A stretch of DNA of 64,000 nucleotides from a virus. The DNA is taken from the IMG/VR virus record IMGVR_UViG_3300047356_000838, positions 1 through 64,000 of that record; one strand, 5' to 3'. The translations under genes and the position numbers were made by a program. Shown piece after piece: positions 20,254 to 40,483 of the stretch (its first letter is position 1; each line of letters opens with the position of its first letter). The notes beneath the pieces were generated by a model, which made no database searches, was not told the origin of the DNA, and saw only the letters and a program-made list of their open reading frames with translations.

Positions 20254-20487
20254 ATGGGAGCAAAGCATCCTCAAGAAACAATAGCACAACTGGGTACTCA
20301 AAAAATACATTTTATACTGGCTGCACGTCACTTAATAAGGCAAGGACTTGCAAAGTCACCAGCAGATGCTATTCGTTACATGGAAGAAAACAACAGTGAT
20401 GTTGATGAAATAATTGAACAACTTATTGTAAGCAAACAAGCAAAACTTGTTGTTAAAGAAGAACCAGAAACAGTAGATGAAGAATAA
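20254..20487 (+). CDS. Hypothetical protein
   Basis: AAGGAG SD before ATG 20254. Confidence 0.65.
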   Translation: MGAKHPQETIAQLGTQKIHFILAARHLIRQGLAKSPADAIRYMEENNSDVDEIIEQLIVSKQAKLVVKEEPETVDEE

Positions 20488-23405: not shown

Positions 23406-23408
23406 TGA

Positions 23409-23921
23409 TTACCATATAGGACTAGGAATTTGTGTTATTCTGTAACTCTGATATATGCTCATGCGCCTTTTTATAACAGGACTGCGCATGCCATGTTCAT
23501 GTTGAGTAGGATTAAACATTAGATATCCACCATTTTTAATGTAAGGAACACTGCGCCACATGCCATCTATGTAACAGTGGGTACCCATGCTTTCGTCACC
23601 TTTGCAAAGATATATCTGTACATTAGCACTTAGATTAGGACTCAGATCAGTGTGTACTTCATTTATATAACCTTCATAGTCATACCATAACTGTGTGCTA
23701 TTAGCAAAACACGGTGTAGCAAAATATTCACTGACAACAGATTCAATCTCAGGTAAGTGCAATCCTTTAGCATAGTGACCTTCGTCTCTGTTTTCTGCCC
23801 CTTGTCCCAGTCGTTGCCAACAATCTCTGTGTTTGAAATGCTTGCGTAGTTTCTTTATTGTTGCTTTATCAAATGCATCTTCGATGCGATAAAAATCATC
23901 ATGTAGTTTAATTAACTGCAT
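23409..23921 (-). CDS. 2OG-Fe(II) oxygenase
   Basis: HTD, QIYL, GT, N.GY, HGM, R.S. Confidence 0.8.
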   Translation of the reverse strand: MQLIKLHDDFYRIEDAFDKATIKKLRKHFKHRDCWQRLGQGAENRDEGHYAKGLHLPEIESVVSEYFATPCFANSTQLWYDYEGYINEVHTDLSPNLSANVQIYLCKGDESMGTHCYIDGMWRSVPYIKNGGYLMFNPTQHEHGMRSPVIKRRMSIYQSYRITQIPSPIW

Positions 23922-25399: not shown

Positions 25400-25547
25400 C
25401 GTTTAATACCCATGTCTTGCTACAATAATAACACACTGCCACTGGTTTGTCTAGTGTTATTTTTATAGTGAACAGTGGATGAGATTTATCTGGACAACTT
25501 AGTGTGCAGGGTTCATCAACTGTGAATGTTTCTTTACTTTTCGACAA
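25380..25547 (-). CDS. zf-CHCC-type zinc-finger protein
   Basis: SC....HP......VCYYCS; probable TTG start at 25547 overlapping the fpr end. Confidence 0.7.
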   Translation of the reverse strand: MSKSKETFTVDEPCTLSCPDKSHPLFTIKITLDKPVAVCYYCSKTWVLNDDNSRT

Positions 25548-26259
25548 ATGCTTTCTCTTGTAGTAAATTTCCTGCACTGCGCTTACTGCCTTCAGTGAAT
25601 CCAGTGTCAATGAACAAATTTTTCATGTCTGTATTAAAATCCATGCTGCCACATATCATAACTTTATCGCTGTCAGGTCTAATAAATTTCCAATATTCAT
25701 CATTTGCAATATGTTCTTGTATGCGCCCACCAAGCACACCCTGCGCAGGCGTCTCCTGAGTCACAGTTGGATAGTAATTATGAATGCTATCACTGAGCAT
25801 CTCTTGTAAAAAATCATGATAGGCTAGTAGTTCATCATTTGTTCTCACTGACCAGGCTACATTTACTGTCCAAAAATTATTATATGTATCTGGATCTCTG
25901 AGTATACTAACAAAAGGAGCAATGCCTGTGCCAGTAGCAAATAACCATAAGTTGCCGCCTAGTTCAATGTTAGCAAGTGTAAGTGTGCCAGTTGTGCGTT
26001 CCGCAACTTCTAAACTGTCACCCTGCTTAACATGCTGCAACTTGCTGGTAAGAGGACCGTCCTCAACTTTAATACTGTAAAACTCTAGGTAGTCATCACC
26101 AGGGCCAGAGGTGAAACTATATGCCCTGGTGATGTTGGTGTCAGGCAATCCAATCATTGTGAATTCACCTGCTGTAAAACGAAAACTGCGTGGCCGTTCT
26201 GTGCGTATGCGAAACAATCTATCTGTATAGTGTTCTACTTCAGTTACATTTACAAGCAT
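25534..26259 (-). CDS. fpr: Ferredoxin/flavodoxin-NADP+ reductase (bacterial type)
   Basis: F.AGEF.MIG, RAYS, GPLTS.L, ATGTGIAPF, MICGS, EKAFVEK. Confidence 0.92.
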   Translation of the reverse strand: MLVNVTEVEHYTDRLFRIRTERPRSFRFTAGEFTMIGLPDTNITRAYSFTSGPGDDYLEFYSIKVEDGPLTSKLQHVKQGDSLEVAERTTGTLTLANIELGGNLWLFATGTGIAPFVSILRDPDTYNNFWTVNVAWSVRTNDELLAYHDFLQEMLSDSIHNYYPTVTQETPAQGVLGGRIQEHIANDEYWKFIRPDSDKVMICGSMDFNTDMKNLFIDTGFTEGSKRSAGNLLQEKAFVEK

Positions 26260-26441
26260 TTAGCCATCTTTTTGATACACTCACTTGCATATGTTGTAAA
26301 CCAACGTGGTATAAAAGCATGTACAACCACCGCCAGTGTTGCTCGTTGCAGTTTAAACGCAATGCCCATTGCATGACAGAAATGTTTCCATGCTGTCATA
26401 TTTGCATCAGTTAAATGCTGTTTACATTTTTTACTTAACAT
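26250..26441 (-). CDS. Small His-containing membrane-associated protein (DUF6356-like)
   Basis: HL...NM...H...A...HAF.P..F...AS pattern. Confidence 0.6.
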   Translation of the reverse strand: MLSKKCKQHLTDANMTAWKHFCHAMGIAFKLQRATLAVVVHAFIPRWFTTYASECIKKMAKCL

Positions 26442-26449
26442 TGTTATTC

Positions 26450-26560
26450 CTATTTGTAGATAAACGGATCGCGCTTGCGTAGTTCTTTAAGTCGCTTGCG
26501 GTATCTTATTTCCATTTTAATTTTATTAATAATACGTTTAATAAATTTAACCACTGACAT
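26450..26560 (-). CDS. 36-aa basic peptide ending RDPFIYK, not in the ORF track
   Basis: MSVVKFIKRIINKIKMEIRYRKRLKELRKRDPFIYK; AAGGA upstream; fills the gap exactly. Confidence 0.75.
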   Translation of the reverse strand: MSVVKFIKRIINKIKMEIRYRKRLKELRKRDPFIYK

Positions 26561-26768
26561 AAGTTTTTTCCTTAGGTCTGTACCATACTTTTTGTTCATG
26601 TAGTTTACCAAGTAACTCTTGTATTTCCATCATTTCTCTTCTTAGTTCTTCACTATAATTTCCACTAGCAATTGCAATACCACGCCTGCCTGCCTTTGCA
26701 CGAAGCGCATGTTCAATAACTTCTATGTCACGCACACTTAGATCAAATTTTAGATTTGGTTTAGGCAC
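26547..26768 (-). CDS. Hypothetical protein
   Basis: GGAG then GTG at 26768; LSVRDIEVIE.AL...LLGKLHEQK.WYRP. Confidence 0.7.
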   Translation of the reverse strand: MPKPNLKFDLSVRDIEVIEHALRAKAGRRGIAIASGNYSEELRREMMEIQELLGKLHEQKVWYRPKEKTYVSG

Positions 26769-26769
26769 T

Positions 26770-27144
26770 TTATAGTTCTCCCTTTGCTCGCATCTCTGCA
26801 CGAATATTTGTAGCACTAATTGCTTTAAGTTCTGGTTCTAAATCATGTTCAGTAAATGTATAACCTACGCCTCTGCCGTAACTGATGTCCACAACATTAG
26901 GTACACGCATTACAATATATTGTATGCTGTATTCATAACCTGCTGCACTGAGTCCATCACGGATACCATGCCATACTTGTTCATAGTCAAATGGATTATC
27001 TTCCCAGCCTTGCACATCACGCACCATGATAACAACTTGTCCTGTTACACTAAGAGCACGTTTAAACAACGCTGTGTGGGCATCATGCCAGGGTTGCCAT
27101 CTGCCCAGCATTTGTGCTGTGGGCTTGCGCCAATCAAAACTCAT
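26770..27144 (-). CDS. HxGH-type nucleotidyltransferase (cytidylyltransferase/NMNAT-like)
   Basis: LGRWQPWHDAH, NPF, YGRGVGY, ISATNIR. Confidence 0.82.
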   Translation of the reverse strand: MSFDWRKPTAQMLGRWQPWHDAHTALFKRALSVTGQVVIMVRDVQGWEDNPFDYEQVWHGIRDGLSAAGYEYSIQYIVMRVPNVVDISYGRGVGYTFTEHDLEPELKAISATNIRAEMRAKGEL

Positions 27145-27368
27145 GATAAATTTTCAATCTTATTGACAATTGATGCATATGATAATGTCTCAATATGTTT
27201 AATAACATCAATGCGTATAGCGACTTGCTTGTGCAAATCATCTACTACTTCATGAACATCTTTGTCTTTACCAGGTCCTGATTTAATTAGTGCAGACTTT
27301 TGCTCTGTAATCAGTGCTAGTATTTCTTTTCTAAGTGCTTCAATCGCAACTTCTTTCCAGTTTTCCAT
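27141..27368 (-). CDS. Helical hypothetical protein
   Basis: ATG at 27368, directly after the cytochrome c stop. Confidence 0.6.
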   Translation of the reverse strand: MENWKEVAIEALRKEILALITEQKSALIKSGPGKDKDVHEVVDDLHKQVAIRIDVIKHIETLSYASIVNKIENLS

Positions 27369-27369
27369 G

Positions 27370-27795
27370 TTACTTTTCGCCCATGCTCTTAAGATATTCA
27401 ATAATAGCACCGCGTTTTTCAGCACTCTTTTGTCTGTAGCTCATGTTTGTGCCTTTTACTAACTTCTTACTGTTAGTTAGCCAGGCATCCAGTAGTTCTT
27501 CTGTCCACTGTGGATTCTCATGAGCCCAAGCACTAAACTCTTTACTGTACCTGTTGTAAGCACCTGAACCTCCTAAAACAGACAAGGCGGGAAAAGCTGA
27601 ATTATCGTCTGCTACGCTTGTACCAACGCCGCGATTCATGATGTTCCAAAGATTTGGACCAAGTTTTTTTATGCTAGAATCTTGCTCAATACTGTGACAA
27701 ATACCGCAATTTCTTTTAAATTCATCTTTTCCGTCCAGTGCTAGTGCTTGCCCTGGAACTAACAATACTGCTATTGTTAATAATACTTTATACAT
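27370..27795 (-). CDS. Class I cytochrome c (c2/CycM-like), exported
   Basis: Signal peptide ending ALA; CGICH heme motif; GPNL; W.EE.L..WL; GTNM axial Met. Confidence 0.92.
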   Translation of the reverse strand: MYKVLLTIAVLLVPGQALALDGKDEFKRNCGICHSIEQDSSIKKLGPNLWNIMNRGVGTSVADDNSAFPALSVLGGSGAYNRYSKEFSAWAHENPQWTEELLDAWLTNSKKLVKGTNMSYRQKSAEKRGAIIEYLKSMGEK

Positions 27796-28268
27796 TATAG
27801 TCTCTCCGTGGGTTTTCCTTGCTGTGCAAGTATATAATTATTTACGACTTTTGTAAGTTCTGTATGTGTGTCATTAAACCATGTTGCAACATTATAGTTA
27901 GCGTTTTGCACTGGTTCAAAAATTGAATCAGTGTGTGCAAATGTAGTGCCTGGTGCTGCAGGTTTAGTGCTTTTACTTGCTTCCAGTGTATTCATAAACA
28001 CTGTGTAGTCTGCTGCAAATTCTGCACGGGCTGCACTAGTAGGACAAACAAAGTCTGCTACTGCAATTCTACCTGCCATTACTACACCATCTGCTAGGTG
28101 ACGCATGCGTTGTGCTTGACGTAAACGACCTTCTAAACTAAAGTCCCAGTCATCATACAGTGTTCTTACTTGATCTGCATTTAGCCAAATGCCATTTATT
28201 AGTTCTGCAAAAGGTTCTGCCAGTGTGCTTTTGCCGCTGCCAGGTAATCCGCATATTAGTATTTTCAT
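27795..28268 (-). CDS. APS-kinase-like P-loop kinase
   Basis: GLPGSGKST, NADQVR...DWDFS.EGR.RQA.RM, DFVCP, FEP. Confidence 0.8.
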   Translation of the reverse strand: MKILICGLPGSGKSTLAEPFAELINGIWLNADQVRTLYDDWDFSLEGRLRQAQRMRHLADGVVMAGRIAVADFVCPTSAARAEFAADYTVFMNTLEASKSTKPAAPGTTFAHTDSIFEPVQNANYNVATWFNDTHTELTKVVNNYILAQQGKPTERL

Positions 28269-29353
28269 CGTAAACTCTCGAGTTGTCTTTGTTCGTGGTC
28301 TCTATCGCTCCAGTGATAATCATAGGTAGCACTGCTTGATCCGCACTCTATTTTATAAATGTCTAGATAGTTGCCCATTTGTCGCCATATGTCCTGAGCA
28401 TCCGCTGTTCCAAAACTATTTAGCAGGTCAACTTCTCCCAGTTTTAAATAGCCTAAACTAAGTTTAGGATCATAGGGATTGAACTTATTTGCTGCTAACC
28501 AATTTTGAAATCCATCTATTTCTTTACAGTGCCAGGGACTGTGAGTATCATACACAACATCATTGCCCCACTCAACATCAAACTCTCCGCTGTAGTATTG
28601 CAAATGTGTAATTGCTTCACATACAGTATCAGTAAGTTCTGGTGCACCCTCATCTCTGTACACTTCCATAAGTGTCTTACCAATTTGACACCAGTGCATA
28701 TATACGCCGCCTAGTTCCCTGTCATAACTATTGTCCAAAAAACCTTGTCTGTGTTCGTCTGTAAGCGTGTGTCTAGGCGCACGAAGAAATGTTGTGATTT
28801 GACTGGGACGAACCCAAAATGGTTCTACTTGTGCTTTGCGTTGACTTAGTACTAAACTTTCTATTTCATGACAAATATTGTTCAGTTGTCTTACTGCGTA
28901 TGTTGTTTCCACAGTCATTTGTGATGCATATTCACTTGGATCTTCCACAGTTCCTTGTAGTAATTCAAAATGATTATGTAGCAAATTCATAACATCATGT
29001 TTTAATCTAAGGCCATGATTATTTTTGTTATCAGTGTACAAACCAACGGGATAATTTTCATCAAACCTTACTGTATCCTCACAGAAGTGTTCTTCAATAA
29101 CATAATCTAAATTGCTTGTGTTTATAGTGCGTATATGTTTATTAAGATTATTGCAAAGATATTTTAGATCACGCTGTGTATAGGGAAAGCCGTGGAAGCA
29201 ATAGTTTTTTTCTAAGTGCAAACTTTTTTGCAGCACATCTTGTTCAAGTGCCACTATCCAGTCCTGTGCTAGTTGATTATCTGCAGGAACAATATTATAA
29301 TCCGCTAGTTCTCCAGTTTCATAATTTCTTAATACTACTTTAACAGATTTCAT
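28265..29353 (-). CDS. Hypothetical protein of the modification cluster
   Basis: 362-aa coupled ORF; NLLHNHFE and NNICHEIE motifs. Confidence 0.75.
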   Translation of the reverse strand: MKSVKVVLRNYETGELADYNIVPADNQLAQDWIVALEQDVLQKSLHLEKNYCFHGFPYTQRDLKYLCNNLNKHIRTINTSNLDYVIEEHFCEDTVRFDENYPVGLYTDNKNNHGLRLKHDVMNLLHNHFELLQGTVEDPSEYASQMTVETTYAVRQLNNICHEIESLVLSQRKAQVEPFWVRPSQITTFLRAPRHTLTDEHRQGFLDNSYDRELGGVYMHWCQIGKTLMEVYRDEGAPELTDTVCEAITHLQYYSGEFDVEWGNDVVYDTHSPWHCKEIDGFQNWLAANKFNPYDPKLSLGYLKLGEVDLLNSFGTADAQDIWRQMGNYLDIYKIECGSSSATYDYHWSDRDHEQRQLESLR

Positions 29354-30620
29354 CCCAAAACTCTCTTGCTTGTATCGTACCCAGTGTATCTCTAAACTTC
29401 ATACCGCCGCGCAAATTGTCCATGGCTTGCATACGCCACTTGCCTTTGATTCTGCCTTTAGCAAACTCGTCTGGAAACTCTTCCTCAAAAGTTGGACGAG
29501 TTAATAAACTTTTTAACATTTCTCTTATTGTACGATTATCCACGTAGTCAGTCAATAACAATTCATTTACAATATGATCTAATATTTCTCGTGGAAGAAA
29601 CAGTGGCGACATTGCAATATCTGGTGTAAATGCAAACGTAACTTTTGCAAGTATGTCTACGTTTAATTCTCTTGCCAGACGGCATATGTTTACTATTTCA
29701 AATAGTCCAGGCAGTGTAAGTGTAAAGTCAATGCGCATCTTACGTCTATCACCATGAGTATACTCTAACCCTTGTTTAAAGTTTGCTAACCATTCCTCAT
29801 AGTTTAATCCTGTGCGTATATACTCACCTACAGCGCCTGTGCCATCTATGCTTGCACATATTTGCCAATCACGAATGTTGGCAAGTATATCCTTATACAA
29901 GTTTACGCCACGATAATCAACACGACTTAGGTTTGTATTATATCGTGCATACAATCCAGGCCCATCACCCAGTTCTATGATGCGTTGCATATAACGCCAA
30001 TGCTGTTCATACATGAGTGGCTCTCCACCTACCCAGTATACTTCTTCAATACGATGTTCTTCAACTGCAGTTGCAAACTCTGCTTCCACAGTATCCTTTT
30101 GGAATTTTTCAATAGCACGTTTAACAGGCTTTTCCATCCAAGGTTCTATTTTGCCTTGCTTGCGAGCTTCTGTTTCCCAACTGCTACTAAGCATAGGTCC
30201 ACACATACGACATTTAAAATTGCACAAGTTACTAAAACGATAGTCCCAACTTACAGGCTTCATGGTTGTATAACCATCTGCATCTGTGCTAGTAATGACT
30301 TGGTCCCATTTGTGCTTAAACAAATGTGTGAAGTAATCTCTGTATACGTCTTGGTTAAGAAGTTTTTTATCACATACTTGACACGCATCTGGAACTTCAT
30401 TGTTTAACATTTGTCTACGGATACTGCGAATGCCTGCTCCGTTCCAGTATTCTTCCAGTGTTTCTGGAGTGTACTCGTTGTCGCCTTCTGCTGTGTCAAT
30501 GTACTGCGTAAAGCTCTGTGCAGGTTCACGACTGGCACAGCACAGTCGTCTTTCAGTTTGTGGGCTGAGATAGGTGTGCGTCCATGGCGCCATGCATAGA
30601 TTTTCAGGTTTAGACATCAA
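29340..30620 (-). CDS. Radical SAM enzyme with an N-terminal twitch/SPASM domain (paralogue 6)
   Basis: CMAPW..CC..CQVC, then CNFKCRMC, GGEPL, YNTN. Confidence 0.9.
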   Translation of the reverse strand: MMSKPENLCMAPWTHTYLSPQTERRLCCASREPAQSFTQYIDTAEGDNEYTPETLEEYWNGAGIRSIRRQMLNNEVPDACQVCDKKLLNQDVYRDYFTHLFKHKWDQVITSTDADGYTTMKPVSWDYRFSNLCNFKCRMCGPMLSSSWETEARKQGKIEPWMEKPVKRAIEKFQKDTVEAEFATAVEEHRIEEVYWVGGEPLMYEQHWRYMQRIIELGDGPGLYARYNTNLSRVDYRGVNLYKDILANIRDWQICASIDGTGAVGEYIRTGLNYEEWLANFKQGLEYTHGDRRKMRIDFTLTLPGLFEIVNICRLARELNVDILAKVTFAFTPDIAMSPLFLPREILDHIVNELLLTDYVDNRTIREMLKSLLTRPTFEEEFPDEFAKGRIKGKWRMQAMDNLRGGMKFRDTLGTIQAREFWDEIC

Positions 30621-31266
30621 AGTATACCATATTATATTGTTGTGTTATATCTTTATATAAATCTTGTTTGTGCGATACATGCTCCTGAGCAAGTGCTTTA
30701 TTCTCAAAAATAGGACATTCATTTAAAAAAAGTCTATCAATTCCTAAACACCATCCTAACCATATGTTACTGTTAATATTCCCGAAATATATACTTGGAT
30801 CTATACAGGTAGTTTTAAAATTTTCAATACATCTGGCTGCAATCTCGTAATCTTTGGTATAGTCTATTTTTGCCTCGTCGAACATAGTAAAGCAATCTTT
30901 GATAAATTTTTCTGGGTCAATATAAAGATCATCATAGTTAATGTGCAAATTTTCTTTATAAAAGATTATTGACGAATTTGCTACTTGATTAAAAAGCTCA
31001 AGTTGCTTGGAGACCTGTTGTGTATGTTGTTTACGGTCAGTTATATTATACTTAATGACAGCGTTTAAATACATATTAAATTTATAGTTGCCGCAAAAAT
31101 ACTTACAATTATCTTTTTCATCGTGGGTTAATATAATATCATTACTTCTAATAGATTGATGAAAGTTAGTACCTATATGCAATTGCTGTGTACTGTCTTG
31201 TAACATGCTTAACATATTACTAACAAAGTTTCCGCCTGCACCACCAAGAAAACACAATACCAGCAT
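30610..31266 (-). CDS. Sulfotransferase-like / P-loop-like hypothetical protein
   Basis: N-terminal strand plus GGAGGNFV loop, THD, INYDDL; visibly AT-rich. Confidence 0.45.
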   Translation of the reverse strand: MLVLCFLGGAGGNFVSNMLSMLQDSTQQLHIGTNFHQSIRSNDIILTHDEKDNCKYFCGNYKFNMYLNAVIKYNITDRKQHTQQVSKQLELFNQVANSSIIFYKENLHINYDDLYIDPEKFIKDCFTMFDEAKIDYTKDYEIAARCIENFKTTCIDPSIYFGNINSNIWLGWCLGIDRLFLNECPIFENKALAQEHVSHKQDLYKDITQQYNMVYFDV

Positions 31267-31268
31267 AA

Positions 31269-32441
31269 TTAAAGCTCATAACCAATTACTTTTGCCATCT
31301 TAGCGTGACTTCCTGCAAAATTTTGATTACGATACAAGTCCGTTTGGCGCAGTTTAGTATGCAGTGATTCGCCGTTCTCTTTCCCACCTGAATTAACTAT
31401 CATTTGTTTTAGTGCAACAATATCATCTTTATATTTGCTGTGTTTTATCTGTTGCTTTTGTAAGTATAACATAACAGGACTGCGAGCACCTCTAGGTATA
31501 CAACTTAGACTGAACTCCCAGGGATCATGCATTACGTTAAAATGTACGCTATTAAAATCCATAGTATCTGCCCAGGTTAATATTTCATCCAAGTAATAAA
31601 TGTTTTGAACGTTCCAGGTACAGCATAACTGCGTACTAATTGGATAGCCACTGTCTCTGAGTGCATGTACCTTTTTTATGTTAGCATTACTAGTCTCCCA
31701 GTTTGCGCCATAGCGTTCATATTCAAAACGTTCTTCAGTATTGTCTACACTAAATGCTATTTGCACATGTTTAAAATGCTGCCATATCGTGGGATCTTTT
31801 GGATACTGTGTAGTGTTTGTATTGTAATGGATGTCAATATCTTTAGCAAGTCCTCGATCAACTGCACGTTGTAATAGATCAAAATGCTCCTTGATCATCC
31901 ATGGTTCGCCGCCAGTAAATTCAAAATATTTTATTTGTGGCAGTATCTCATCTAACTGTGTCCAAAAATGTTCACTTTCTCTGGGCCATTGTCCTGCCCG
32001 TAACCAAGTACGAGCAATATGATTTTTACTGTCATCTACATAGTCTAATTCTTCTTTTGCCCATTTGCTGCTACTCCAACTACCACATATTCTACATTTT
32101 AAATTACAAATGTTTCCAAGTTTTAAATCTAAGAAAACAAGTTCTTCGCCATTGTTGTCTTTGTATTCAATGTTAAGATGTTTAAACTTTTCCAACATGT
32201 ATTCACGTTTTGATTTTTTGCCAGCATCTTCTTCACGCCAGCAGTTACGACAACCATCAGGTTTTTCGCCTCTGCGGAAACTACGGCGCAGATCACGCAT
32301 TGTCTTGCTGTTGAACGCATCCTCTAGTGTATGTGTTTTAAGATCAACGTTGGGTATTTCATCAGTATACAAACAACAAGGGCGTGTTGTTCCCAGCGGA
32401 GTTGTTTCAATGCTAATCCATGGAAGTATGCATCTACTCAT
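31269..32441 (-). CDS. N-terminal twitch radical SAM enzyme (paralogue 5)
   Basis: CILPW..PCC..CRNC; CNLKCRIC; GGEP; YNTN. Confidence 0.9.
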   Translation of the reverse strand: MSRCILPWISIETTPLGTTRPCCLYTDEIPNVDLKTHTLEDAFNSKTMRDLRRSFRRGEKPDGCRNCWREEDAGKKSKREYMLEKFKHLNIEYKDNNGEELVFLDLKLGNICNLKCRICGSWSSSKWAKEELDYVDDSKNHIARTWLRAGQWPRESEHFWTQLDEILPQIKYFEFTGGEPWMIKEHFDLLQRAVDRGLAKDIDIHYNTNTTQYPKDPTIWQHFKHVQIAFSVDNTEERFEYERYGANWETSNANIKKVHALRDSGYPISTQLCCTWNVQNIYYLDEILTWADTMDFNSVHFNVMHDPWEFSLSCIPRGARSPVMLYLQKQQIKHSKYKDDIVALKQMIVNSGGKENGESLHTKLRQTDLYRNQNFAGSHAKMAKVIGYEL

Positions 32442-33741
32442 ATTGTGCTAAACCTTGTAGTTCAGGAAACACTGTATAAAAGTTTTCTGTACGCACTGCG
32501 TCCAACTGCTTGGTAACATGATTAAACTTGGGCAAATGCTGTGTATTGTCAGTATTATTCATAAAACTAATTGTACTGCGGAAACCATTTGTTGCACGTT
32601 GCAAATGATCCTGAGGTTCTAGCCATGCAATGTGCTCTTCTAGTTTTTGTGTTGCTTGTGCTTTTAGTTCTTTGGGTAAACAATCTGCACGATACCAATC
32701 AGGTGATTGCAGTATGTTTACGTTTAAGTCCTGTGCTTTGAGCAATCCACTGTCTACCCACGCTCTATGAAAATCAGGCACATGTAGTACATTCATTAAA
32801 CTTACTGTTGGACTAATGTAAAAGTCTACGTCAGGACACACTTCTAGCATGCGTTGTCTGTTGTGTACAATTTTATTCCAGTCACACCCACTGCGCATTA
32901 GTTCTGCACGATCTCCACTGGCATCCAAACTTGCGCCAATACTAACACTATCAAACATACCCCAATAGTCCAGCACATCTAAATCTTTATACAGCGTTTC
33001 ATTAAAGTTTGTATTATAAATTAATTTAACATCAAAACGTTTGCGACGAACAAGTTCTTTAAGTATGTTATAGTGTTCCTGCATAATCAGAGGTTCACCA
33101 CCTGCAAAATATATTTGCTCTATGTGGTCAATGTGTGGGATCATTTGTTCCCATATATCAGTCTTATTCTTACCTGCCCATTCTATACGCTTGTGATTAG
33201 GTGCTTGTCCATGCATTTTAACATGATCATCATACCACAAACTGCTAAACATAGGACCGCAACTGCGACACTTTAGATTACACTGATTACTAAAACGAAT
33301 ATCCCAGTATACTAGTTCAAAGTCTGGATTAACACCCTGATCTACTTTGTCAATGTGATGCCCAAAGTGTTTGTTGTGGCTGTTTCTCATACTAAAGAAG
33401 CCTTGCGCTTCCTGTTCGTAGCAGCGTGTGCATTCTTTGCAAGGTTTGTCAGCAAGCATGCGTTCACGCATTTGGACATAATTTGACCCGTTCCAAATTT
33501 CCTCTAATGAATTATCTCGCATGTTGCCGATAGGGTGTTCCATTTCAGCCAAACAACAAGGGTATGCTTCGCCTGTTGGAAATCCGTGTATGTGCGTCCA
33601 TGGAATCATACAAAAGTACTTGCTTTCCATTAAACGCTTTTGCTGGTCTTCACGCAAACTTTCTAACTTAACAAACACAGGACGTCTGCTGTTGTAGTCA
33701 TATGTTTCGTAATATTTGTCTGTTTTTTCAGAGCGACTCAT
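32434..33741 (-). CDS. N-terminal twitch radical SAM enzyme (paralogue 4)
   Basis: CMIPW..PCC..CTRC; CNLKCRSC; GGEPL; YNTN. Confidence 0.9.
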   Translation of the reverse strand: MSRSEKTDKYYETYDYNSRRPVFVKLESLREDQQKRLMESKYFCMIPWTHIHGFPTGEAYPCCLAEMEHPIGNMRDNSLEEIWNGSNYVQMRERMLADKPCKECTRCYEQEAQGFFSMRNSHNKHFGHHIDKVDQGVNPDFELVYWDIRFSNQCNLKCRSCGPMFSSLWYDDHVKMHGQAPNHKRIEWAGKNKTDIWEQMIPHIDHIEQIYFAGGEPLIMQEHYNILKELVRRKRFDVKLIYNTNFNETLYKDLDVLDYWGMFDSVSIGASLDASGDRAELMRSGCDWNKIVHNRQRMLEVCPDVDFYISPTVSLMNVLHVPDFHRAWVDSGLLKAQDLNVNILQSPDWYRADCLPKELKAQATQKLEEHIAWLEPQDHLQRATNGFRSTISFMNNTDNTQHLPKFNHVTKQLDAVRTENFYTVFPELQGLAQYE

Positions 33742-35056
33742 ACCATTCCTCTAGTTCTGGAAACGCCCGTGCAAATGTGTGATTGCGGCGTACATCATAT
33801 TGTGTGTAAAACTTTTTAAAGTCGTTGTGCAAGCGTGGCATTTCAAATGCTTCGTTGTGTGGTTTCTCAACCACTTGCAAATACTCAATTAATCTGTCCA
33901 GTTGTCCACGCTCCCAGTCTTGCATGTTAGATAAGTCAAGTTGTTTTAGTCTACTAACACAAGCATCTTTAATAGGTTGCGGTAACACCAAACAACTCTG
34001 GAAACTTGGAAAGCGCAGTATATTATAACTCATTACTGCAAACCCATTGCCAAATAGAGTTCTTGCACGAAGTATTTTTTCAATCATATCAGGCAGTGTT
34101 GGTAGACACAGCGCATTAATTGTCATCATACAGTGTGTGTCAATATCTGCAAAGTGTAGTTTTAACAAGTTTTTCCACCACTGGTCGAAGTCTAATCCGT
34201 CACGGATGTATTCAGCACTGTATCCTGTTGCTTCCATACTAGTGTAAATATTTAAACTAGGCAAGTGTGTTCTTGCTTCTACTAATCTATCTATTAGTTC
34301 AGGTTTGCCGCCGAGGTTACTATTAATAGCAAGACCGGTCTGACTTTTATCTGCGTTTAGTTTAAACCAATCAAACAATCTCCAAAGTTCTGCACTCATA
34401 ATAGGTTCACCGCCTGTGATGCGCAGTTCACGCAGTGTGCGATGTAGGTCAGTGTCCCACCATTTAAAAAATGCTTCTACATATGGATTTGTTTCGCCGA
34501 ACTTGTACAGTTGGTTCTTATCGTGCGGATGTGTGAAGTGGTTACGTCCATCACTTTGTAGATCATTGTAACTGCCTTTTTGTTTTATATCTTTTACCCA
34601 TGTTGTGCTAAATGCGGGATTGCAATAACTGCAAGCAAAGTTGCATGTTCTATCAAAGGCAATCTCAAGGGTAATGAGATCAACATCTTCATCATGTGGT
34701 GTAGCGTATGCATTTTTAAGTTCCTCACTAGTATATATCTTGGATTTGTAAACACGGTCACTTATAAATGACTTGCCCATGTCCTCAATTTTCCAACAGT
34801 ATTCACAACCACTGGGACGTTCACCGCACTGCATTTGTCTACGCTGTTCTTTTTTCTCAGGTGTGTTGTGCAACAGTTTTGGATTTTCTAGCACTAGTTC
34901 TGGATTGACTAGATGTGCTGGCGGATGATGACAACTGGTAGTCATACCGCTGCCAAGCCATATAGTAGCGTTGTACCACTTGGCTGCGCAGAAACTTGCG
35001 CTCTTAGTGTCTAAATGGTTTGCTTTAAATATTAGATCTGTTTGCATACTGTTCAC
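33728..35056 (-). CDS. N-terminal twitch radical SAM enzyme (paralogue 3)
   Basis: CAAKW..SCHHP..CEYCW; CNFACSYC; GGEP; NSN. Confidence 0.9.
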   Translation of the reverse strand: MNSMQTDLIFKANHLDTKSASFCAAKWYNATIWLGSGMTTSCHHPPAHLVNPELVLENPKLLHNTPEKKEQRRQMQCGERPSGCEYCWKIEDMGKSFISDRVYKSKIYTSEELKNAYATPHDEDVDLITLEIAFDRTCNFACSYCNPAFSTTWVKDIKQKGSYNDLQSDGRNHFTHPHDKNQLYKFGETNPYVEAFFKWWDTDLHRTLRELRITGGEPIMSAELWRLFDWFKLNADKSQTGLAINSNLGGKPELIDRLVEARTHLPSLNIYTSMEATGYSAEYIRDGLDFDQWWKNLLKLHFADIDTHCMMTINALCLPTLPDMIEKILRARTLFGNGFAVMSYNILRFPSFQSCLVLPQPIKDACVSRLKQLDLSNMQDWERGQLDRLIEYLQVVEKPHNEAFEMPRLHNDFKKFYTQYDVRRNHTFARAFPELEEWYESL

Positions 35057-36392
35057 ACTGTTGCCAAAATGTTTTCATCTCTGGAAAGGTTTCTAAAAAA
35101 TTTGTTTCTCTGCGTCGGTCATGTTCACTAAAGAATTTGTAAAAATCTCCACGCTTGCGTTCTACATCTGTAGTACCTTGTAACATCCAATCCAAATCAC
35201 GTTGCATTTTTAGCACTTCATAGTCTTTGAATCCATGCATTTCGTGCATGTTATCTTGCATATAGCGTATACATTCTTGCATTACTATTTGATATTCCAT
35301 GGGCAATATTTGCATGCTTTGCCACTCAGGAGTATAGAGTAAAGGTGTATCAAACCATATACGCTGATAGGTATCAGTGTAAGTTTTACGCAAGTATACA
35401 ATGTATTCTAACAATTTTTTAAGAGAAAGTATACTTAAATTATTCATTGTAATGATGAATGTCAGGCTACTACGACGTGGAACATCTCGAACAAATTCTT
35501 CACATCTATTTATAGCAAGATCAAAGTCCAATCCATGACGTATATATTCTGCTTGTTTACCCCAGGTGTCCAAACTAACAAACTGCATAAAGTGTTCAAT
35601 TTGCTCACCTTCGCACAGGCGTTGCACATAACCTTTGTACTTGTCCCATACCTTAGCGTCAACACTAAAATTACTTGTGGTGTTAAGATGTAGATCAGGC
35701 TTTGGATTATCTAACACATAGTCAAACACACGATATGTGTTTGGATCCATTGTGGGCTCACCGCCTGTCATTCTGAAGTGTTTAAGATCCTTGTATAGAG
35801 CTGGCCACCATCGCCAGAAGGCTTCGCGGTAGGGGTTGTCTTCTCTGTTGGGAATAGCCCGTCTTTTGCCCACAAAGTGTTGGGGGTCATTGTGCGGTAC
35901 AGTTGTGGGCCATGCTCCGTGTTCCTTTGATTCTGCTGTCCAGGTGCTGCTAAACTGAGGACTGCAATAACTGCAACTAAGATTACAAACATTATTAAAA
36001 TTTACCTCTACATAACTTGGGTTAACATCCGCAAGTGGGTTGTTAACTATTTCATCAAAACTCTGCATGGCCCAGGGCTCGCCGCTGCGGTAATGACGGT
36101 CACTTATATTGCCTTGTGATTCTATGTTCCAACAATAATTACAATCACTGCACTTAGTTCCCTCCATCATTTCTAGTCGACTTTGTTTTTTGTGTGCAGT
36201 GTTGTGTAACGCACTGGGATTTTCTGCTAGTGGTTCCACAGGAATAGGATGCAATGGTGGATGGTAGCAACTGTTTGTATGACCAGTTGTTAAATGCAAA
36301 CTAACTTGTTTCCATTTTGCCAAACAAAAACTATCACTTACTGTTGCAAGTTTATCTTTTGCAGTTAGTGCATCGTTGTAATAATCACTCAT
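35025..36392 (-). CDS. N-terminal twitch radical SAM enzyme (paralogue 2)
   Basis: CLAKW..SCYHP..CNYCW; CNLSCSYC; GGEP; TSN. Confidence 0.9.
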   Translation of the reverse strand: MSDYYNDALTAKDKLATVSDSFCLAKWKQVSLHLTTGHTNSCYHPPLHPIPVEPLAENPSALHNTAHKKQSRLEMMEGTKCSDCNYCWNIESQGNISDRHYRSGEPWAMQSFDEIVNNPLADVNPSYVEVNFNNVCNLSCSYCSPQFSSTWTAESKEHGAWPTTVPHNDPQHFVGKRRAIPNREDNPYREAFWRWWPALYKDLKHFRMTGGEPTMDPNTYRVFDYVLDNPKPDLHLNTTSNFSVDAKVWDKYKGYVQRLCEGEQIEHFMQFVSLDTWGKQAEYIRHGLDFDLAINRCEEFVRDVPRRSSLTFIITMNNLSILSLKKLLEYIVYLRKTYTDTYQRIWFDTPLLYTPEWQSMQILPMEYQIVMQECIRYMQDNMHEMHGFKDYEVLKMQRDLDWMLQGTTDVERKRGDFYKFFSEHDRRRETNFLETFPEMKTFWQQCEQYANRSNI

Positions 36393-37348
36393 ATACCATC
36401 TCGCATATATTCTTGAATAGCATATTTTTCAAACGGCAAACTACTCCATATATCTGTGTTTTTAAGTTTGTCTTGTAACAATATAAAACTCATTGTGTGC
36501 GGAAATAGCCAACTTTCATCATTATTCAATAAACTTCTAAGGTGAGCATTATCTGGAATATATTCTATAGATTCTTTTAGGTCTTTTGGTAATACATTTA
36601 CACACAAATAATCAGGCTCTGCTAGTATGTTATAAACAACAGGATATTTGCTCCATTGTTCAATTTCTTTTAAGTTAAAAATATTCAATACACTTATAGT
36701 TGGATTTACTGTGACTTTTGCATACATTGCTGCAGTGTGTAAATTATTTGTCCACTTGTCCCATTTAGTGCCGTAACGCAATTGTTCTCCTAAGGGACCA
36801 ATTGCATCCATACTAGCATTGACCGACACATGTTTAAATCTAGGCCAGTATATATCAATATTTTTTATTGATAACAGATTACTATTATAATGTAATGTAA
36901 CACTACTAGGATCAATGATACTATCTAATACTTGCCAGTGTTTGGGATTGATAAGTGGTTCTCCTCCAGCAAAGTAGATATGTTCTACATTTGTTAAATC
37001 TACATCAAAGTCTGTGCTTACAAATTTTGTTTCACCTAATCTATCAGCCCATTTACTACTGTAATAACTATTACAAATTGTACATTCTAGGTTACAAAGA
37101 TTATTGTTTCTTACATCTAAATATCGTATAGCATAAGTCTCATTTTTTAAACTATCAAAATTATCTTTGTACTTTGGTCCAGGATGCCTACAAGCGTCAC
37201 ATCCTGCTCCATCTCTTAAACTATGCCATGGATCTTTCCAGTCAAGGTCATTAATATCCAAAAATAAATTGTGATCAAATAAACAGCAAGGACTTACTTT
37301 TCCATCTGGATGAATACAGAATCCGCTATCAAAAGCACCACAATCCAT
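36389..37348 (-). CDS. Compact N-terminal twitch radical SAM enzyme (paralogue 1)
   Basis: C..PCC..CDAC; CNLECTIC; GGEPL; YNSN; visibly AT-rich. Confidence 0.88.
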   Translation of the reverse strand: MDCGAFDSGFCIHPDGKVSPCCLFDHNLFLDINDLDWKDPWHSLRDGAGCDACRHPGPKYKDNFDSLKNETYAIRYLDVRNNNLCNLECTICNSYYSSKWADRLGETKFVSTDFDVDLTNVEHIYFAGGEPLINPKHWQVLDSIIDPSSVTLHYNSNLLSIKNIDIYWPRFKHVSVNASMDAIGPLGEQLRYGTKWDKWTNNLHTAAMYAKVTVNPTISVLNIFNLKEIEQWSKYPVVYNILAEPDYLCVNVLPKDLKESIEYIPDNAHLRSLLNNDESWLFPHTMSFILLQDKLKNTDIWSSLPFEKYAIQEYMRDGI

Positions 37349-38259
37349 TACCAGCCTTCGTGCTTTCTAATTGCATCTATTTCCAGTGTCATAGGTCCTG
37401 CTGCACAGTATGTTTGTTCATAATACTTCTTAAAAAAAGCACTTTCTTTAATTCCTATATCTAACATAGGCAATCCAAGTCTGCTCAGAAGCGCACCGTT
37501 AATCTCAGGCATGTTCATAATATCATATTCGGAATATATCTTATCTAAATTTTCAAACCACTGTACTTGTGTATGATCCCAGTCAGTAAGCATGGTCATG
37601 TATGTACCCATTCGTGCACCATTAATTGCATCTGAACCGTGTTCTGCATCTCTGCCAACGTTATGCCACACGCTTAATCTATCAAAGTTTGACTTATGTA
37701 CCATATCTTCAAATTCAATTAGTGTAGGTTTTGTGCCATTGCGTAAACACATCTTTACACCTTCACGGAATCCTGCACGCCAAGCATGTTTAGCACTGCC
37801 ATTGGGATAGGTTGTGCTATACACATTGTTCATTGCTAGATACTTTGGATCATAACAAAACTCTACATCATTTTCATCAGTGCCATCACTTGCTTCATGT
37901 GTGCGCATGTTGTTTACGAATGTGCGTGTCCAGCAACTCATACCACCATTGCCATACATAAGTCCGTTGATGTTGTTTACTGCTTTCCAACGAAATACAC
38001 AATCCTCATGTTCTGGTTTAATATCCAGTGTAATATCAAAAAACTCTGGATAAGGCATGTTGTCACCATCAATGAGGATGAAACGTTCTGTATCACTTGC
38101 GTCTGCGGCTGCTTTGTGTGCAGCATCACTGCCCTGTACATTATCAACACGCTTTGCCCAGGGCACCATGTTTTGTATCTTAATCCAGAATTCTTCTTTC
38201 TTAGGTTCGTCGTAACTAAGATAAATGCAGTCTAGGTCTGCTACATCAACTTTTGACAT
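37348..38259 (-). CDS. GT-A fold glycosyltransferase-like protein
   Basis: IYLSYDEP, RV..V.GSD.AHKAAA, IDGDN (DxD), YGNGG, WRAGFREG.KM. Confidence 0.72.
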   Translation of the reverse strand: MSKVDVADLDCIYLSYDEPKKEEFWIKIQNMVPWAKRVDNVQGSDAAHKAAADASDTERFILIDGDNMPYPEFFDITLDIKPEHEDCVFRWKAVNNINGLMYGNGGMSCWTRTFVNNMRTHEASDGTDENDVEFCYDPKYLAMNNVYSTTYPNGSAKHAWRAGFREGVKMCLRNGTKPTLIEFEDMVHKSNFDRLSVWHNVGRDAEHGSDAINGARMGTYMTMLTDWDHTQVQWFENLDKIYSEYDIMNMPEINGALLSRLGLPMLDIGIKESAFFKKYYEQTYCAAGPMTLEIDAIRKHEGW

Positions 38260-38527
38260 ATGGATTTCTCGCTAGTTCTTGTTGTGTTAATCCCCAAGTT
38301 CGATGTTTAGGAGGACTAAATGTTAGTTTATTTTCTACTACTGTGTAGTCGTCACGTTTACTATTACACGCATCAAATTCATCTTGTGTAATAACGATAT
38401 AATCATGTTCTAATACGTCATATGATATATCTATTATACAGCCTTGATCATCATAATACAACTTATGTATTTTTTTAGTACTAGGTGGTTTTAGTTGATC
38501 TGCTACTTCAAAGAATGCGCTGCTCAT
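38246..38527 (-). CDS. Hypothetical protein
   Basis: Overlap-coupled ORF; LYYD..G.I. Confidence 0.7.
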   Translation of the reverse strand: MSSAFFEVADQLKPPSTKKIHKLYYDDQGCIIDISYDVLEHDYIVITQDEFDACNSKRDDYTVVENKLTFSPPKHRTWGLTQQELARNPYVKS

Positions 38528-39335
38528 ATCTCGTTATTAACTCCTGTGTACAAAAATCTTTGTGAAAATAATGAAATGGTCTAGTTTGTGCATATCCGTT
38601 TACACAAAATATCATATCATCTGTTAGTGCCCAACTACAAGCATCCCGCCAATCATCGTTACTAAAATCATTGATATGCTGCTTCATGTGTGTAAATGTA
38701 GGATAATCTAATGTAGGCATATAGTAATCTTCGCTGCCTAATTCAGTTGCAGCAATACTCATAAACACATCTGTATCTGCAGTGTTGTGTCTACAGTTAC
38801 TTAGCACACTTAATTTGTATATATCAAAGTTATCAAACACACGTTGACTTGTTTCAAAAAATTGTTTTGTTTCAGCACAGTGTCTAAAATACATAAAACC
38901 ATTATAAGCATTGCATAAATTGTTTTCATGCCACATCCGTCTGTGATGTTTATCTTCTACTATTTCACCTCGATAGTTGCGCACCTGTGTAGTAAAACAA
39001 ACATTCTTAAGTCTAGCACCTGCCCACCAGTGATCAATATTGCTTGTAATGAGCATGTCACTTTCTACTTTAAATGTTTCTTTGTAAGGAGTTAAGTCCC
39101 ATGCACGATTTTCATTTTCAAAAGGATGCATAGTATCAATTTGGATTATCTCGTCAAATACTTTGCGGTGATTGTCTGTAAGCAAGTCCGCTGTACTAGG
39201 ATCTACAACAACACAAAAATCATTTATTTTACAATAAGTTTTGACACTCAAAGCAAGCAGATATGCACAATGAAGATATTGTTCTCCTTGTGCAAAAGTT
39301 AGATATCCTTGCGCTTTATTTTTTTCTATGCGCAT
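38508..39335 (-). CDS. GT-A (GT8-like) glycosyltransferase-like protein
   Basis: GYLTFA...Y..CAY.LALS.K; FDEII; TPYKET.KVESDM; FTHMK; PFHY. Confidence 0.72.
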   Translation of the reverse strand: MRIEKNKAQGYLTFAQGEQYLHCAYLLALSVKTYCKINDFCVVVDPSTADLLTDNHRKVFDEIIQIDTMHPFENENRAWDLTPYKETFKVESDMLITSNIDHWWAGARLKNVCFTTQVRNYRGEIVEDKHHRRMWHENNLCNAYNGFMYFRHCAETKQFFETSQRVFDNFDIYKLSVLSNCRHNTADTDVFMSIAATELGSEDYYMPTLDYPTFTHMKQHINDFSNDDWRDACSWALTDDMIFCVNGYAQTRPFHYFHKDFCTQELITRYEQRIL

Positions 39336-40087
39336 AGTTTATCCGCTACTTCCAGCAAACTGCGTTTGTTCATTACATGTAAATCGCCTGTGTAGCGTAC
39401 AACGTTATGTGATTCTTTGTGTTCATACTTGAGTAGCCAACGCCCATTTGCATAATCCAATACACTGTCACTACTGCTAAGTGCAGGCAATGCATAGTCA
39501 AATGTTGCTGTGTTTGCATATCCGTTGCATATTTGATGTGCAATGCTCATTGCAAAATCATTGCGAAACGGTGCTTTACTAAACCCAAACAATTCTGCAT
39601 AGTAAGCGTAGTTTTCATATACCATACGCCAAGCATCAAATATACGCTTTGCACGTTCCGTTTTTTTAAAATACACAACTGTTGCCCAACGCATTTCAAA
39701 CCAATTCTGCGTCATAAAACGGTCATGTCTAAACACATCATTGCCAGAGACATCCCAACTTGAATTATGGCAAACAAAGTCGTGATCACACCCAAAATAT
39801 TTTGCTAGTGCGTCACACTGTACAATATAATCACTGTCAATCAGCAATGTTTCGTTGTATGGACTAAGTTCATAGGCACTGTATCTGCCTATGTTGTTCC
39901 ACTCTGTACCTTCTAGTTCGCCGTTAGGGTAACGAAATGTGCGAAAGTTTTTTTGTGCAGGATCTAGTTTAACTACGGTACTAGGTACACCTAAATGCTT
40001 TTCTGCTAGTCGTGCGCATGTTTCACTTAGACGTAGATAGTCTAACTGTGCGCTTTCACTGTACAGTATTAGTATGCCTTTAGACAG
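39326..40087 (-). CDS. GT-A (GT8-like) glycosyltransferase-like protein, probable CTG start
   Basis: Frame is open 80 codons upstream of the track start: (M)SKGILILY...DYL.L...SPYNETLLIDSDY (DxD), paralogous to the next gene; RNDFA.SIA, HVMNK. Confidence 0.75.
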   Translation of the reverse strand: MSKGILILYSESAQLDYLRLSETCARLAEKHLGVPSTVVKLDPAQKNFRTFRYPNGELEGTEWNNIGRYSAYELSPYNETLLIDSDYIVQCDALAKYFGCDHDFVCHNSSWDVSGNDVFRHDRFMTQNWFEMRWATVVYFKKTERAKRIFDAWRMVYENYAYYAELFGFSKAPFRNDFAMSIAHQICNGYANTATFDYALPALSSSDSVLDYANGRWLLKYEHKESHNVVRYTGDLHVMNKRSLLEVADKLCA

Positions 40088-40424
40088 AGACGTCCCCTGC
40101 TTTGCGTTTTGTTTTTAGTTCAGTGTATTCATTGTGCCAATCATTGTGTACTTCATTCCAACGAGCATCACATAGTTTTACAAGTTCTACACAGTCAATT
40201 TCAATTGGTGTATCATAACTATCTGGTATAATGCATTTAGTGCTTTGTTGAAACAGGCCTGCATTTGCATTTTTCATATACAAATAGTTAAGCAAGGTCA
40301 TATCTACACGGAATAGCCCACCATTATATGTAACAGTGAGCCGTTGCTGTTGTTGCTCTTTAAGAGTCTGTTTTTGTCGGTTGAGCTCGAATCTTTCGCG
40401 AGCATATGTTTCTAGATTTTCCAT
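40080..40424 (-). CDS. Hypothetical protein, first gene of the modification operon (probably leaderless)
   Basis: ATG 7 nt after TATAAT with no SD; NGGLF...D....PIEI. Confidence 0.75.
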   Translation of the reverse strand: MENLETYARERFELNRQKQTLKEQQQQRLTVTYNGGLFRVDMTLLNYLYMKNANAGLFQQSTKCIIPDSYDTPIEIDCVELVKLCDARWNEVHNDWHNEYTELKTKRKAGDVSV

Positions 40425-40431
40425 TCTTGAT

Positions 40432-40460
40432 ATTATAACAGGCGCCCAAGCGCCTGTCAA
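40432..40460 (-). promoter_or_regulatory. Class B consensus sigma70 promoter with a palindromic spacer
   Basis: TTGACA-GGCGCTTGGGCGCCTGT-TATAAT; inverted repeat ACAGGCGC-N4-GCGCCTGT at 40438-40457. Confidence 0.85.
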
Positions 40461-40483
40461 TAGTTAAAATGTTTTTTTATATT

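Follow-up and report, generated by a model that had tools for sequence, protein, structure and literature searches.

Radical S-adenosylmethionine (SAM) enzymes catalyze reactions that rank among the most difficult in biology. Among those with a twitch domain, the founding enzyme is BtrN, the 2-deoxy-scyllo-inosamine dehydrogenase of the butirosin pathway, and nucleotide- or nucleoside-linked sugars are the substrates of two other radical SAM enzymes, the cytosylglucuronate decarboxylase BlsE and the TDP-4-amino-4,6-dideoxyglucose deaminase DesII, the latter acting after a DegT-family aminotransferase. A catalogue entry, the NCBIfam family NF033640 (N_Twi_rSAM, twitch domain-containing radical SAM protein), holds proteins in which the twitch domain comes first and the radical SAM core follows. 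To our knowledge, no reaction has been assigned to this N-terminal-twitch (N-twitch) family, and a literature search found no published description of its activity or of a phage array of its genes. Here, such an array is described in a stretch of 64,000 nucleotides, positions 1 to 64,000 of the IMG/VR virus record IMGVR_UViG_3300047356_000838 (hereafter the window). Six open reading frames (ORFs), designated A to F, occupy 29340-37348 on the minus strand, and five of them recur in related phages as a fixed set, in the order E-D-C-B-A, which lies outside the definition of the family.

The complete record comprises 85,779 bases, with a completeness of 23% according to CheckV. Jumbo T4-like phages of the GAP32, CBB and Atu_ph07 group have baseplate wedge proteins that share ~35% identity with the one encoded here. 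DNA nearly identical to 29340-37348 (at least 98% of sampled words) was present in 14 seawater or marine metagenome runs, among which the source sample may be, or which may stem from one campaign. The array is carried by an uncultured giant ocean phage.

The N-twitch proteins and their cysteine site

All six ORFs passed the curated NF033640 cut-off (170 bits, a whole-protein score from a hidden Markov model), A to E with a near-full match to the model, and the same search gave no match over the cut-off in any of 14 control genomes. The ORFs are given below; counts of loci refer, here and later, to a related set of 69 viral loci obtained by scanning viral contigs with protein C.

29340-30620, minus strand: A, 426 aa, 299.9 bits against NF033640; last gene of the five-gene set, its orthogroup monophyletic with support 1.0
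30610-31266, minus strand: unrelated 218-aa ORF that separates B from A; 2 of 69 loci have a homologue
31269-32441, minus strand: B, 390 aa, 321.3 bits; found in natural C-B fusions
32434-33741, minus strand: C, 435 aa, 406.6 bits, the top score of the six
33728-35056, minus strand: D, 442 aa, 296.1 bits; D/E subtype; 50% identical to RsoM2USA_202
35025-36392, minus strand: E, 455 aa, 312.9 bits; D/E subtype; first gene of the five-gene set; found in E-D fusions
36389-37348, minus strand: F, 319 aa, 177.8 bits; accessory member that groups with B and C

The six genes lie where the initial annotation had placed them, and the domain order that it proposed, with an auxiliary cysteine cluster ahead of the core, holds for all of them. 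The description of a six-gene array stood as regards the number of members and must be qualified as regards contiguity, since the 218-aa ORF, which matched no Pfam, NCBIfam or PHROG family, separates B from A, and since F is short and barely over the cut-off, its match being limited to model positions 97-332. A clear orthologue of F was found in only one related locus (L012, 62% identity). The Pfam radical SAM model PF04055 scored above its own cut-off in three of the six proteins (A, B and D), and the Pfam SPASM model matched at the N-terminus, above its cut-off in B and C and below it in A and F.

The motifs that had been quoted for two subtypes were present in the ORFs as described. D and E carry C.AKW, SC(H/Y)HP and C.YCW; A, B, C and F carry a CC pair and CxxC, with C..PW additionally in A, B and C; and all six keep CxxxCxxC and GGEP. 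The identity of the other members to A is 20-25% in pairwise comparison. In an alignment of 111 homologues, consisting of the six window proteins and 105 proteins from 21 related viral loci, four N-terminal cysteines (C44, C63, C104 and C107 in the numbering of C) were invariant in every protein of both subtypes. They form the pattern C-x18-C-x40-CxxC, with spacings of 19, 41 and 3, and precede the CxxxCxxC motif, whose cysteines (C154, C158 and C161) were also invariant in all 111 proteins together with G214-G215-E216 and a few further residues. The cluster motifs had been said to remain intact despite high divergence, and this was borne out beyond the window.

When profile positions 15-92 were aligned with BtrN residues 183-257 (tagged chain), all four cysteines lined up with those that we take to be the ligands of the auxiliary cluster in BtrN. 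The invariant cysteines and this alignment, together with the N-terminal position of the SPASM matches, identify a genuine twitch domain that has been moved to the N-terminus. The likeness to BtrN lies in the four cysteines and their spacing and in a sugar- or aminoglycoside-type context. However, the twitch domain is C-terminal in BtrN and N-terminal here, the whole-protein match is low (E 8.5e-6, 28 bits), and the array proteins have an extra helical C-terminal region. The seven-cysteine SPASM motif, which continues with Cx2Cx5Cx3C, was absent, only four cysteines being conserved in the N-terminal part.

It had further been proposed that the two subtypes use different auxiliary-cluster ligands, possibly including histidine. 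A histidine specific to D and E does exist next to the second conserved cysteine, yet the same four cysteines are invariant in both subtypes, and of the CC pair in A, B, C and F it is the second cysteine that D and E have in common with them. The two subtypes share one four-cysteine site in the alignment, histidine was rejected as a ligand in D and E, and the putative auxiliary cluster is predicted to be fully cysteine-ligated, of the BtrN type.

An AlphaFold2 (AF2) model of C (predicted local distance difference test, pLDDT, 94.2), which includes the extra helical region, had BlsE as its closest fold (Z 13.1; root-mean-square deviation 3.6 over 219 residues), followed by anSME (12.5), CteB (12.3), SkfB (12.1), SuiB (12.0), viperin (11.5), MoaA (11.3) and DesII (10.4). 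The modelled fold belongs to the SPASM/twitch branch, within which the Z scores did not separate enzymes acting on sugars from those acting on peptides. At the level of sequence families, several of these enzymes were not recovered: BlsE is the best structural match of C, but its model TIGR04466 gave 16 bits against a cut-off of 400, and in F only; the moaA model gave 15-25 bits against 284; and the equivalog cut-offs of MoaA, BlsE and anSME were not reached. The viperin model NF038283 gave 15.8-28.5 bits against a cut-off of 180. A role in anti-phage defense was considered and rejected, as PADLOC returned weak pVip matches only (at most 32 bits).

The ordered set of paralogues

The related loci hold between two and seven members of the family each. 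The order E-D-C-B-A was exact in 35 of the 69, most of the others adding, duplicating or truncating one copy, and four loci carry a divergent form of the array. Thus, the unit of the array is a conserved ordered pentad. Phylogeny, one of the checks called for in the initial annotation, resolved (D,E) and (A,(F,(B,C))) as two superclades with supports of 0.998 and 1.0, and the two subtypes recognized from motifs are therefore real clades. Each of the five orthogroups was monophyletic (supports 0.86-1.0), and the window proteins are 41-93% identical to their own orthologues (55-93% in the case of E), their scores against the other paralogues being three- to five-fold lower.

The ratio of nonsynonymous to synonymous substitution rates (dN/dS) was 0.05-0.15 wherever dS could be estimated, many dS values exceeding 1, and the array genes are under purifying selection. 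Between 103 and 184 columns per orthogroup were at least 90% conserved, of which only 21 were conserved and identical across all five groups, and just two of the 368 matched ORFs in the relatives looked split. The paralogues are old, intact and individually constrained. Low dN/dS, group-specific conserved columns and the rarity of split ORFs fit the view that they perform distinct, non-redundant steps, which is likely on these comparative grounds; dN/dS near 1 and frequent pseudogenization, which had been named beforehand as signs against it, were not seen. Of the interpretation offered at first, the N-terminal twitch, the two subtypes and the probable division into distinct steps are retained, and the differing cluster ligands are not.

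These data also bear on the alternative in which the paralogues lack distinct roles, being redundant or decaying duplicates. Such decay could be read into the low pairwise identity, the truncated and sporadic F, and the variable copy number per locus, but it is contradicted by five orthogroups that keep their order across the 69 loci down to 41-60% identity, by dN/dS values far below 1, by catalytic motifs invariant throughout the alignment, and by the near absence of split ORFs, so that this alternative is extremely improbable.

Natural fusions provided another type of evidence. Among the best 150 representatives, two-unit fusions in array order comprised eight C-B, two E-D and one B-A, and other combinations also occurred. 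A single C-B fusion cluster contains 11 members (843 aa), and full-length members of one E-D form number four, while several others are singletons. Since these fusions join neighbors in the array, they suggest that neighboring paralogues work together. We hold it possible, at a little short of an even chance, that the six genes encode active, non-redundant N-twitch radical SAM enzymes and that E-D-C-B-A would be the fixed tailoring core of a conserved phage operon.

The operon, its small peptide and its relatives

A sigma-70-like promoter with a 12/12 match lies at 40460-40432, the sole 12/12 match within 21500-41000, and from it a tightly packed run of minus-strand genes extends down to 22197. 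The array is accompanied in this run, and at its convergent end, by the following genes.

40080-40460, minus strand: ~100-aa protein at the operon head; homologue in 38 of 69 loci
39326-40087, minus strand: GT8-like paralogue with invariant D84 and D86; homologue in 48 of 69 loci
38508-39335, minus strand: GT8-like (glycogenin-like) protein of 275 aa; homologue in 51 of 69 loci
37348-38259, minus strand: GT-A-fold glycosyltransferase-like protein of 303 aa, encoded immediately upstream of the array; 58 of 69 loci have a homologue
28265-29353, minus strand: conserved protein of 362 aa, directly after A; homologue in 52 of 69 loci
27795-28268, minus strand: APS-kinase-like P-loop kinase (Pfam), variable insert; 4 of 69 loci
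27370-27795, minus strand: cytochrome c (Pfam), variable insert; 0 of 69 loci
26770-27144, minus strand: cytidylyltransferase-like protein (Pfam), variable insert; 4 of 69 loci
26450-26560, minus strand: basic peptide of 36 aa with the invariant C-terminus ..RDPFIYK; in 57 of 69 loci
25534-26259, minus strand: FNR-like reductase (Pfam), variable insert; 5 of 69 loci
23912-25399, minus strand: NodU/TobZ-type carbamoyltransferase (Carbam_trans_C 172 bits, Carbam_trans_N 122 bits); homologue in 56 of 69 loci
22197-23405, minus strand: protein of 402 aa; homologue in 40 of 69 loci
21276-22253, plus strand: DegT/DnrJ/EryC1 sugar aminotransferase (PF01041, 130 bits), convergent with the operon; 5 of 69 loci
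20477-21298, plus strand: NDP-sugar (nucleoside diphosphate sugar) epimerase/dehydratase (PF01370, 91 bits), convergent with the operon; 3 of 69 loci

Four of these proteins resemble glycosyltransferases. The profile of the 275-aa protein matched glycogenin-1 (E 2.5e-4), and the gene at 39326-40087 was related to this 275-aa family with an hhalign probability of 99.3%. In the latter gene, the first ATG, GTG or TTG (39847) would give a protein of 173 aa, compared to ~250-280 aa in its relatives, and the frame is open up to 40087; either a non-canonical start or an N-terminal truncation would account for this. The AF2 model of the 303-aa protein (pLDDT 89.1) matched GT-A folds at Z 7-9 over residues 2-164, two viral glycosyltransferases among them, its DxD motif (D64, D66) was invariant, and a single representative, a singleton, fuses such a domain to an E-type enzyme. 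The C-terminal half of the 402-aa protein is a paralogue of this GT-A-like protein without the DxD (hhalign 99.6%, E 3.4e-24). The 362-aa protein gave no lead with Pfam, NCBIfam, PHROG, the PDB profile or Atlas, and it proved to have no relation to the DUF6071-like protein encoded ahead of the peptide in L063 and in the cultured Ralstonia phage RsoM2USA.

The insert genes between 25534 and 28268 are rare among the related loci and thus do not belong to the core; a redox module was likewise rejected as a core partner, given the counts of the FNR-like and cytochrome c genes. Tail-fiber-like genes stand directly upstream of the cassette and were found in 25-30 of the 69 loci. The interval from these genes to the baseplate wedge gene contains one ORF of 4,402 aa, at 45805-59013 of the window (minus strand).

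The basic peptide is the sole conserved small ORF of the cassette (33-36 aa) and one of its most conserved elements, its last seven residues being encoded in 34 different ways in 54 occurrences. It occurred as one copy per record in five of five records, RsoM2USA among them, and it matched no Pfam or NCBIfam family. The initial annotation had listed it among the possible substrates of the radical SAM enzymes. A motif scan of the viral collection, in which 80 of at least 119 stretches were examined, placed the peptide with one phage carbamoyltransferase subfamily, in no fewer than 119 viral stretches. The motif led to 79 further viral loci: where 1.5 kb or more was available downstream, the carbamoyltransferase was present in 52 of 57 loci (adjacent in 43), whereas N-twitch genes were present in only 15 of the 50 loci where 3 kb or more was available upstream. 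The peptide therefore belongs to the carbamoyltransferase, as an accessory, and its role as a radical SAM substrate was abandoned, as it mostly occurs without N-twitch genes. In a six-frame scan of genome loci, it was detected only in phage-like contigs, in L131 and in RsoM2USA, and not in the carbamoyltransferase loci of Bdellovibrionia or Myxococcales. PMC2885083 describes sxtJ and sxtK as uncharacterized, and a suggested likeness of the peptide to SxtK was unconfirmed.

The copy numbers of the family in related giant-phage records and in RsoM2USA were as follows.

G001, 322 kb, 90% complete: 16 NF033640 matches, 11 over the cut-off
G002, 209 kb, 60% complete: 13 matches, 12 over the cut-off
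G003, 192 kb, 53% complete: 9 matches, 7 over the cut-off
RsoM2USA (cultured Ralstonia phage), 344 kb, whole record: 2 matches, both over the cut-off

RsoM2USA is the cultured relative. Its genes 199-202 are all annotated as hypothetical. Among them are a D-type orthologue that is 50% identical and the closest carbamoyltransferase, at 44% identity, and the small peptide is encoded there too, unannotated between genes 200 and 201 (L156:13892-14014, minus strand). It differs in having only the two N-twitch genes genome-wide and three DUF6071 genes in place of the glycosyltransferase-like ones. These three paralogues surround the D-type gene at 125035-129043 of RsoM2USA (L156), a relative of theirs stands before the peptide in L063-L067, which are divergent viral loci, and DUF6071 motifs look SGNH-hydrolase-like, a judgement made by eye only. 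A tblastn search with protein C matched only four phage records, none of them cyanophages. The cyanophages S-CAM3 and P-SSM2 and the pelagiphage HTVC008M carry a homologous carbamoyltransferase (28% identity) in the same position before tail-fiber-like genes, in S-CAM3 and P-SSM2 among genes for heptose nucleotide sugars; these islands differ in having no N-twitch genes, and the peptide was absent within 4 kb of the carbamoyltransferase in four of four cultured phages without N-twitch genes. The Moraphages are a different lineage, and radical SAM proteins are not mentioned in the accessible part of the source (PMC12619734).

A profile search of 1.84 billion protein clusters gave 8,424 cluster representatives at E <= 1e-30. 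Among 79 loci from GTDB genomes, 37 had one N-twitch copy, 13 had two and 15 had none, and the loci with five to eight copies resembled phage contigs binned into metagenome-assembled genomes (MAGs). Within L077-L082, contigs from MAGs named Legionellales, Porticoccaceae, Haliscomenobacter and Rickettsiales hold five to six N-twitch genes together with the phage cassette, and a 2.5-kb contig of a Polynucleobacter MAG holds three, two of them cut by the contig ends; these N-twitch-rich contigs are probably phage contigs mis-binned into bacterial genomes. Single-copy genes with 24-41% identity (L083-L130) were strikingly common in MAGs of Bdellovibrionota, Bacteriovoracaceae and Oligoflexia, those at 30-40% identity being mostly from Bdellovibrionota. 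One Bdellovibrionia locus (L089) has, besides two N-twitch-type genes, another two radical SAM genes, of which one codes for a C-terminal SPASM domain, and additionally encodes a methyltransferase, a short-chain dehydrogenase/reductase (SDR) and a carbamoyltransferase. N-twitch genes also have the carbamoyltransferase as a neighbor in 5 of 53 genome loci and in RsoM2USA.

PF04055 matched 19 times in the 322-kb record and eight times in the record studied here, two of the latter being outside the window and not of the N-twitch type: a B12-binding, class-B-like radical SAM protein of 521 aa (76727-78292 of the record, plus strand) and a MoaA/SPASM-like one of 362 aa (78808-79896, plus strand), with an SDR-like gene between them.

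Proposed sugar tailoring and competing readings

The four glycosyltransferase-like genes, the carbamoyltransferase and the adjacent NDP-sugar enzymes make sugar tailoring the most likely role of the cassette. We tentatively favor, with somewhat less than even confidence, a stepwise radical tailoring of an unusual sugar, which would then be transferred by the glycosyltransferase-like proteins and carbamoylated. The chemical steps, the substrate and the acceptor are what we infer from this neighborhood. In each enzyme, the CxxxCxxC-bound cluster would cleave SAM and abstract one particular hydrogen from the sugar, either nucleotide-activated or already transferred, and, as in BtrN, the N-terminal cysteine-ligated cluster would accept the substrate radical's electron. 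A different oxidation, epimerization, deoxygenation or rearrangement step would fall to each paralogue, and adjacent paralogues probably act in pairs or within a complex. Sugar transfer would be the task of the GT8-like and GT-A-like proteins, the carbamoyltransferase and its small peptide partner would cap a hydroxyl, and the leading guess for the acceptor is a virion protein such as the neighboring tail fibers. As for DesII, a DegT-family gene is at hand, here abutting the phage operon.

Several observations weigh against this proposal. The chemistry has to be inferred throughout, because NF033640 has no member of tested activity, and the peptide-acting folds (anSME, CteB, SkfB and SuiB) lie within ~1 Z of BlsE. 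Each of the NDP-sugar genes, the kinase, the cytidylyltransferase-like gene and the reductase is confined to 3-5 of the 69 loci; thus, production of the activated sugar falls outside the core cassette. The four glycosyltransferase-like profiles matched nothing in the 30-kb locus of RsoM2USA, despite its D-type enzyme, carbamoyltransferase and peptide. The scores behind the GT-A and GT8 assignments are middling (Z 7-9 and E 2.5e-4), and the GT-A-E fusion is a single sequence on one contig. Finally, two studies (X16 and X18 from one, X15 from the other) yielded short RNA-library contigs that match pieces of A, B, C, D and F without difference, a weak hint that the array is expressed, but they may be carried-over DNA; gaps in their cover over the operon carry no meaning.

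A variant of sugar tailoring would have the five enzymes form a physical assembly line, with neighbor pairs as hinted at by the E-D, C-B and B-A fusions. The line would start from a common nucleotide sugar and yield a free compound, carbamoylated and similar to an aminoglycoside or nucleoside antibiotic, for use during infection. The product would be aimed, for example, at competing phages or at host translation instead of decorating the virion, and the phage would possess a secondary-metabolite pathway built almost wholly from one uncharacterized radical SAM family, which reaches at least 11-12 over-cut-off copies per genome in related giant phages. This variant is quite improbable.

Amino-acid residues might be modified instead of sugars, either in a peptide made by the ribosome and modified after translation (RiPP) or in a virion protein such as a tail fiber, where cross-links, epimerization or oxidation would harden or change the particle. 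Most characterized SPASM/twitch enzymes act on peptides, and anSME, CteB, SkfB and SuiB belong to the same branch as C (Z 12.0-12.5); peptide maturases, SkfB and TigE among the best, also gave sequence matches (E 1.6e-7 to 3e-4), tail-fiber-like genes lie directly upstream, and the cassette contains a strongly conserved small peptide gene. Yet this gene, the sole conserved small ORF, goes with the carbamoyltransferase and not with the N-twitch genes, and in genome loci it is confined to the few places listed above. The ~100-aa protein that leads the operon has no conserved cysteine, and Pfam and NCBIfam reported no RiPP recognition element (RRE) or PqqD-like domain in the six proteins or the 362-aa neighbor. 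In contrast to the peptide maturases, the array proteins have no C-terminal SPASM domain, no second auxiliary motif, no recognizable leader-binding domain and no co-travelling precursor, and their conserved partners are glycosyltransferase-like proteins and a carbamoyltransferase. On balance, residue modification appears unlikely. A phage carbamoyltransferase of the NodU/TobZ type was shown in PMC8670742 to convert 5-hydroxymethyl-dC (5hmdC) to 5-carbamoyloxymethyl-dC in DNA, RNA and deoxynucleoside triphosphates, and hypermodification of phage DNA or nucleotides is therefore to be taken seriously: the carbamoyltransferase and glycosyltransferases would decorate a modified base, and the radical SAM enzymes would rework the appended group. 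Nucleotide-acting viperins were the best matches of the radical SAM core (E 1.5e-8), MoaA and BlsE matching too, and the reduced cassette of RsoM2USA lies among genes for dihydrofolate reductase (DHFR), a helicase and a DNA ligase, and a second, divergent thymidylate-synthase homologue is encoded in the same genome. This possibility is weakened by the lack of a ThyA-like hydroxymethylase (PF00303) in all four records searched (the record studied here and three relatives, one of them 90% complete), by a window that encodes ThyX instead of ThyA, and by a cassette that adjoins tail-fiber and NDP-sugar genes, not replication genes; the term "radical SAM" does not occur in the main text of PMC8670742. 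A search for TET/JBP (PF12851) gave no match, but it gave none in the control genomes either and is therefore uninformative. Modification of DNA is accordingly rated as distinctly unlikely.

The equivalence of the four cysteines with those of BtrN, the fusions in array order, the assignment of the peptide to the carbamoyltransferase and the recognition of RsoM2USA as a cultured handle are new here. As RsoM2USA carries a reduced cassette, the question is open to bench testing. Many large aquatic phages keep five paralogues of a radical SAM family in fixed order under selection, and the 11 over-cut-off copies (of 16 matches) and 19 radical SAM domain matches in a 90%-complete relative indicate a heavy viral investment in an uncharacterized chemistry. 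A glycan of the virion or envelope as the product would bear on host recognition and on escape from defenses in the ocean; a free compound or a modification of DNA would represent a new class.

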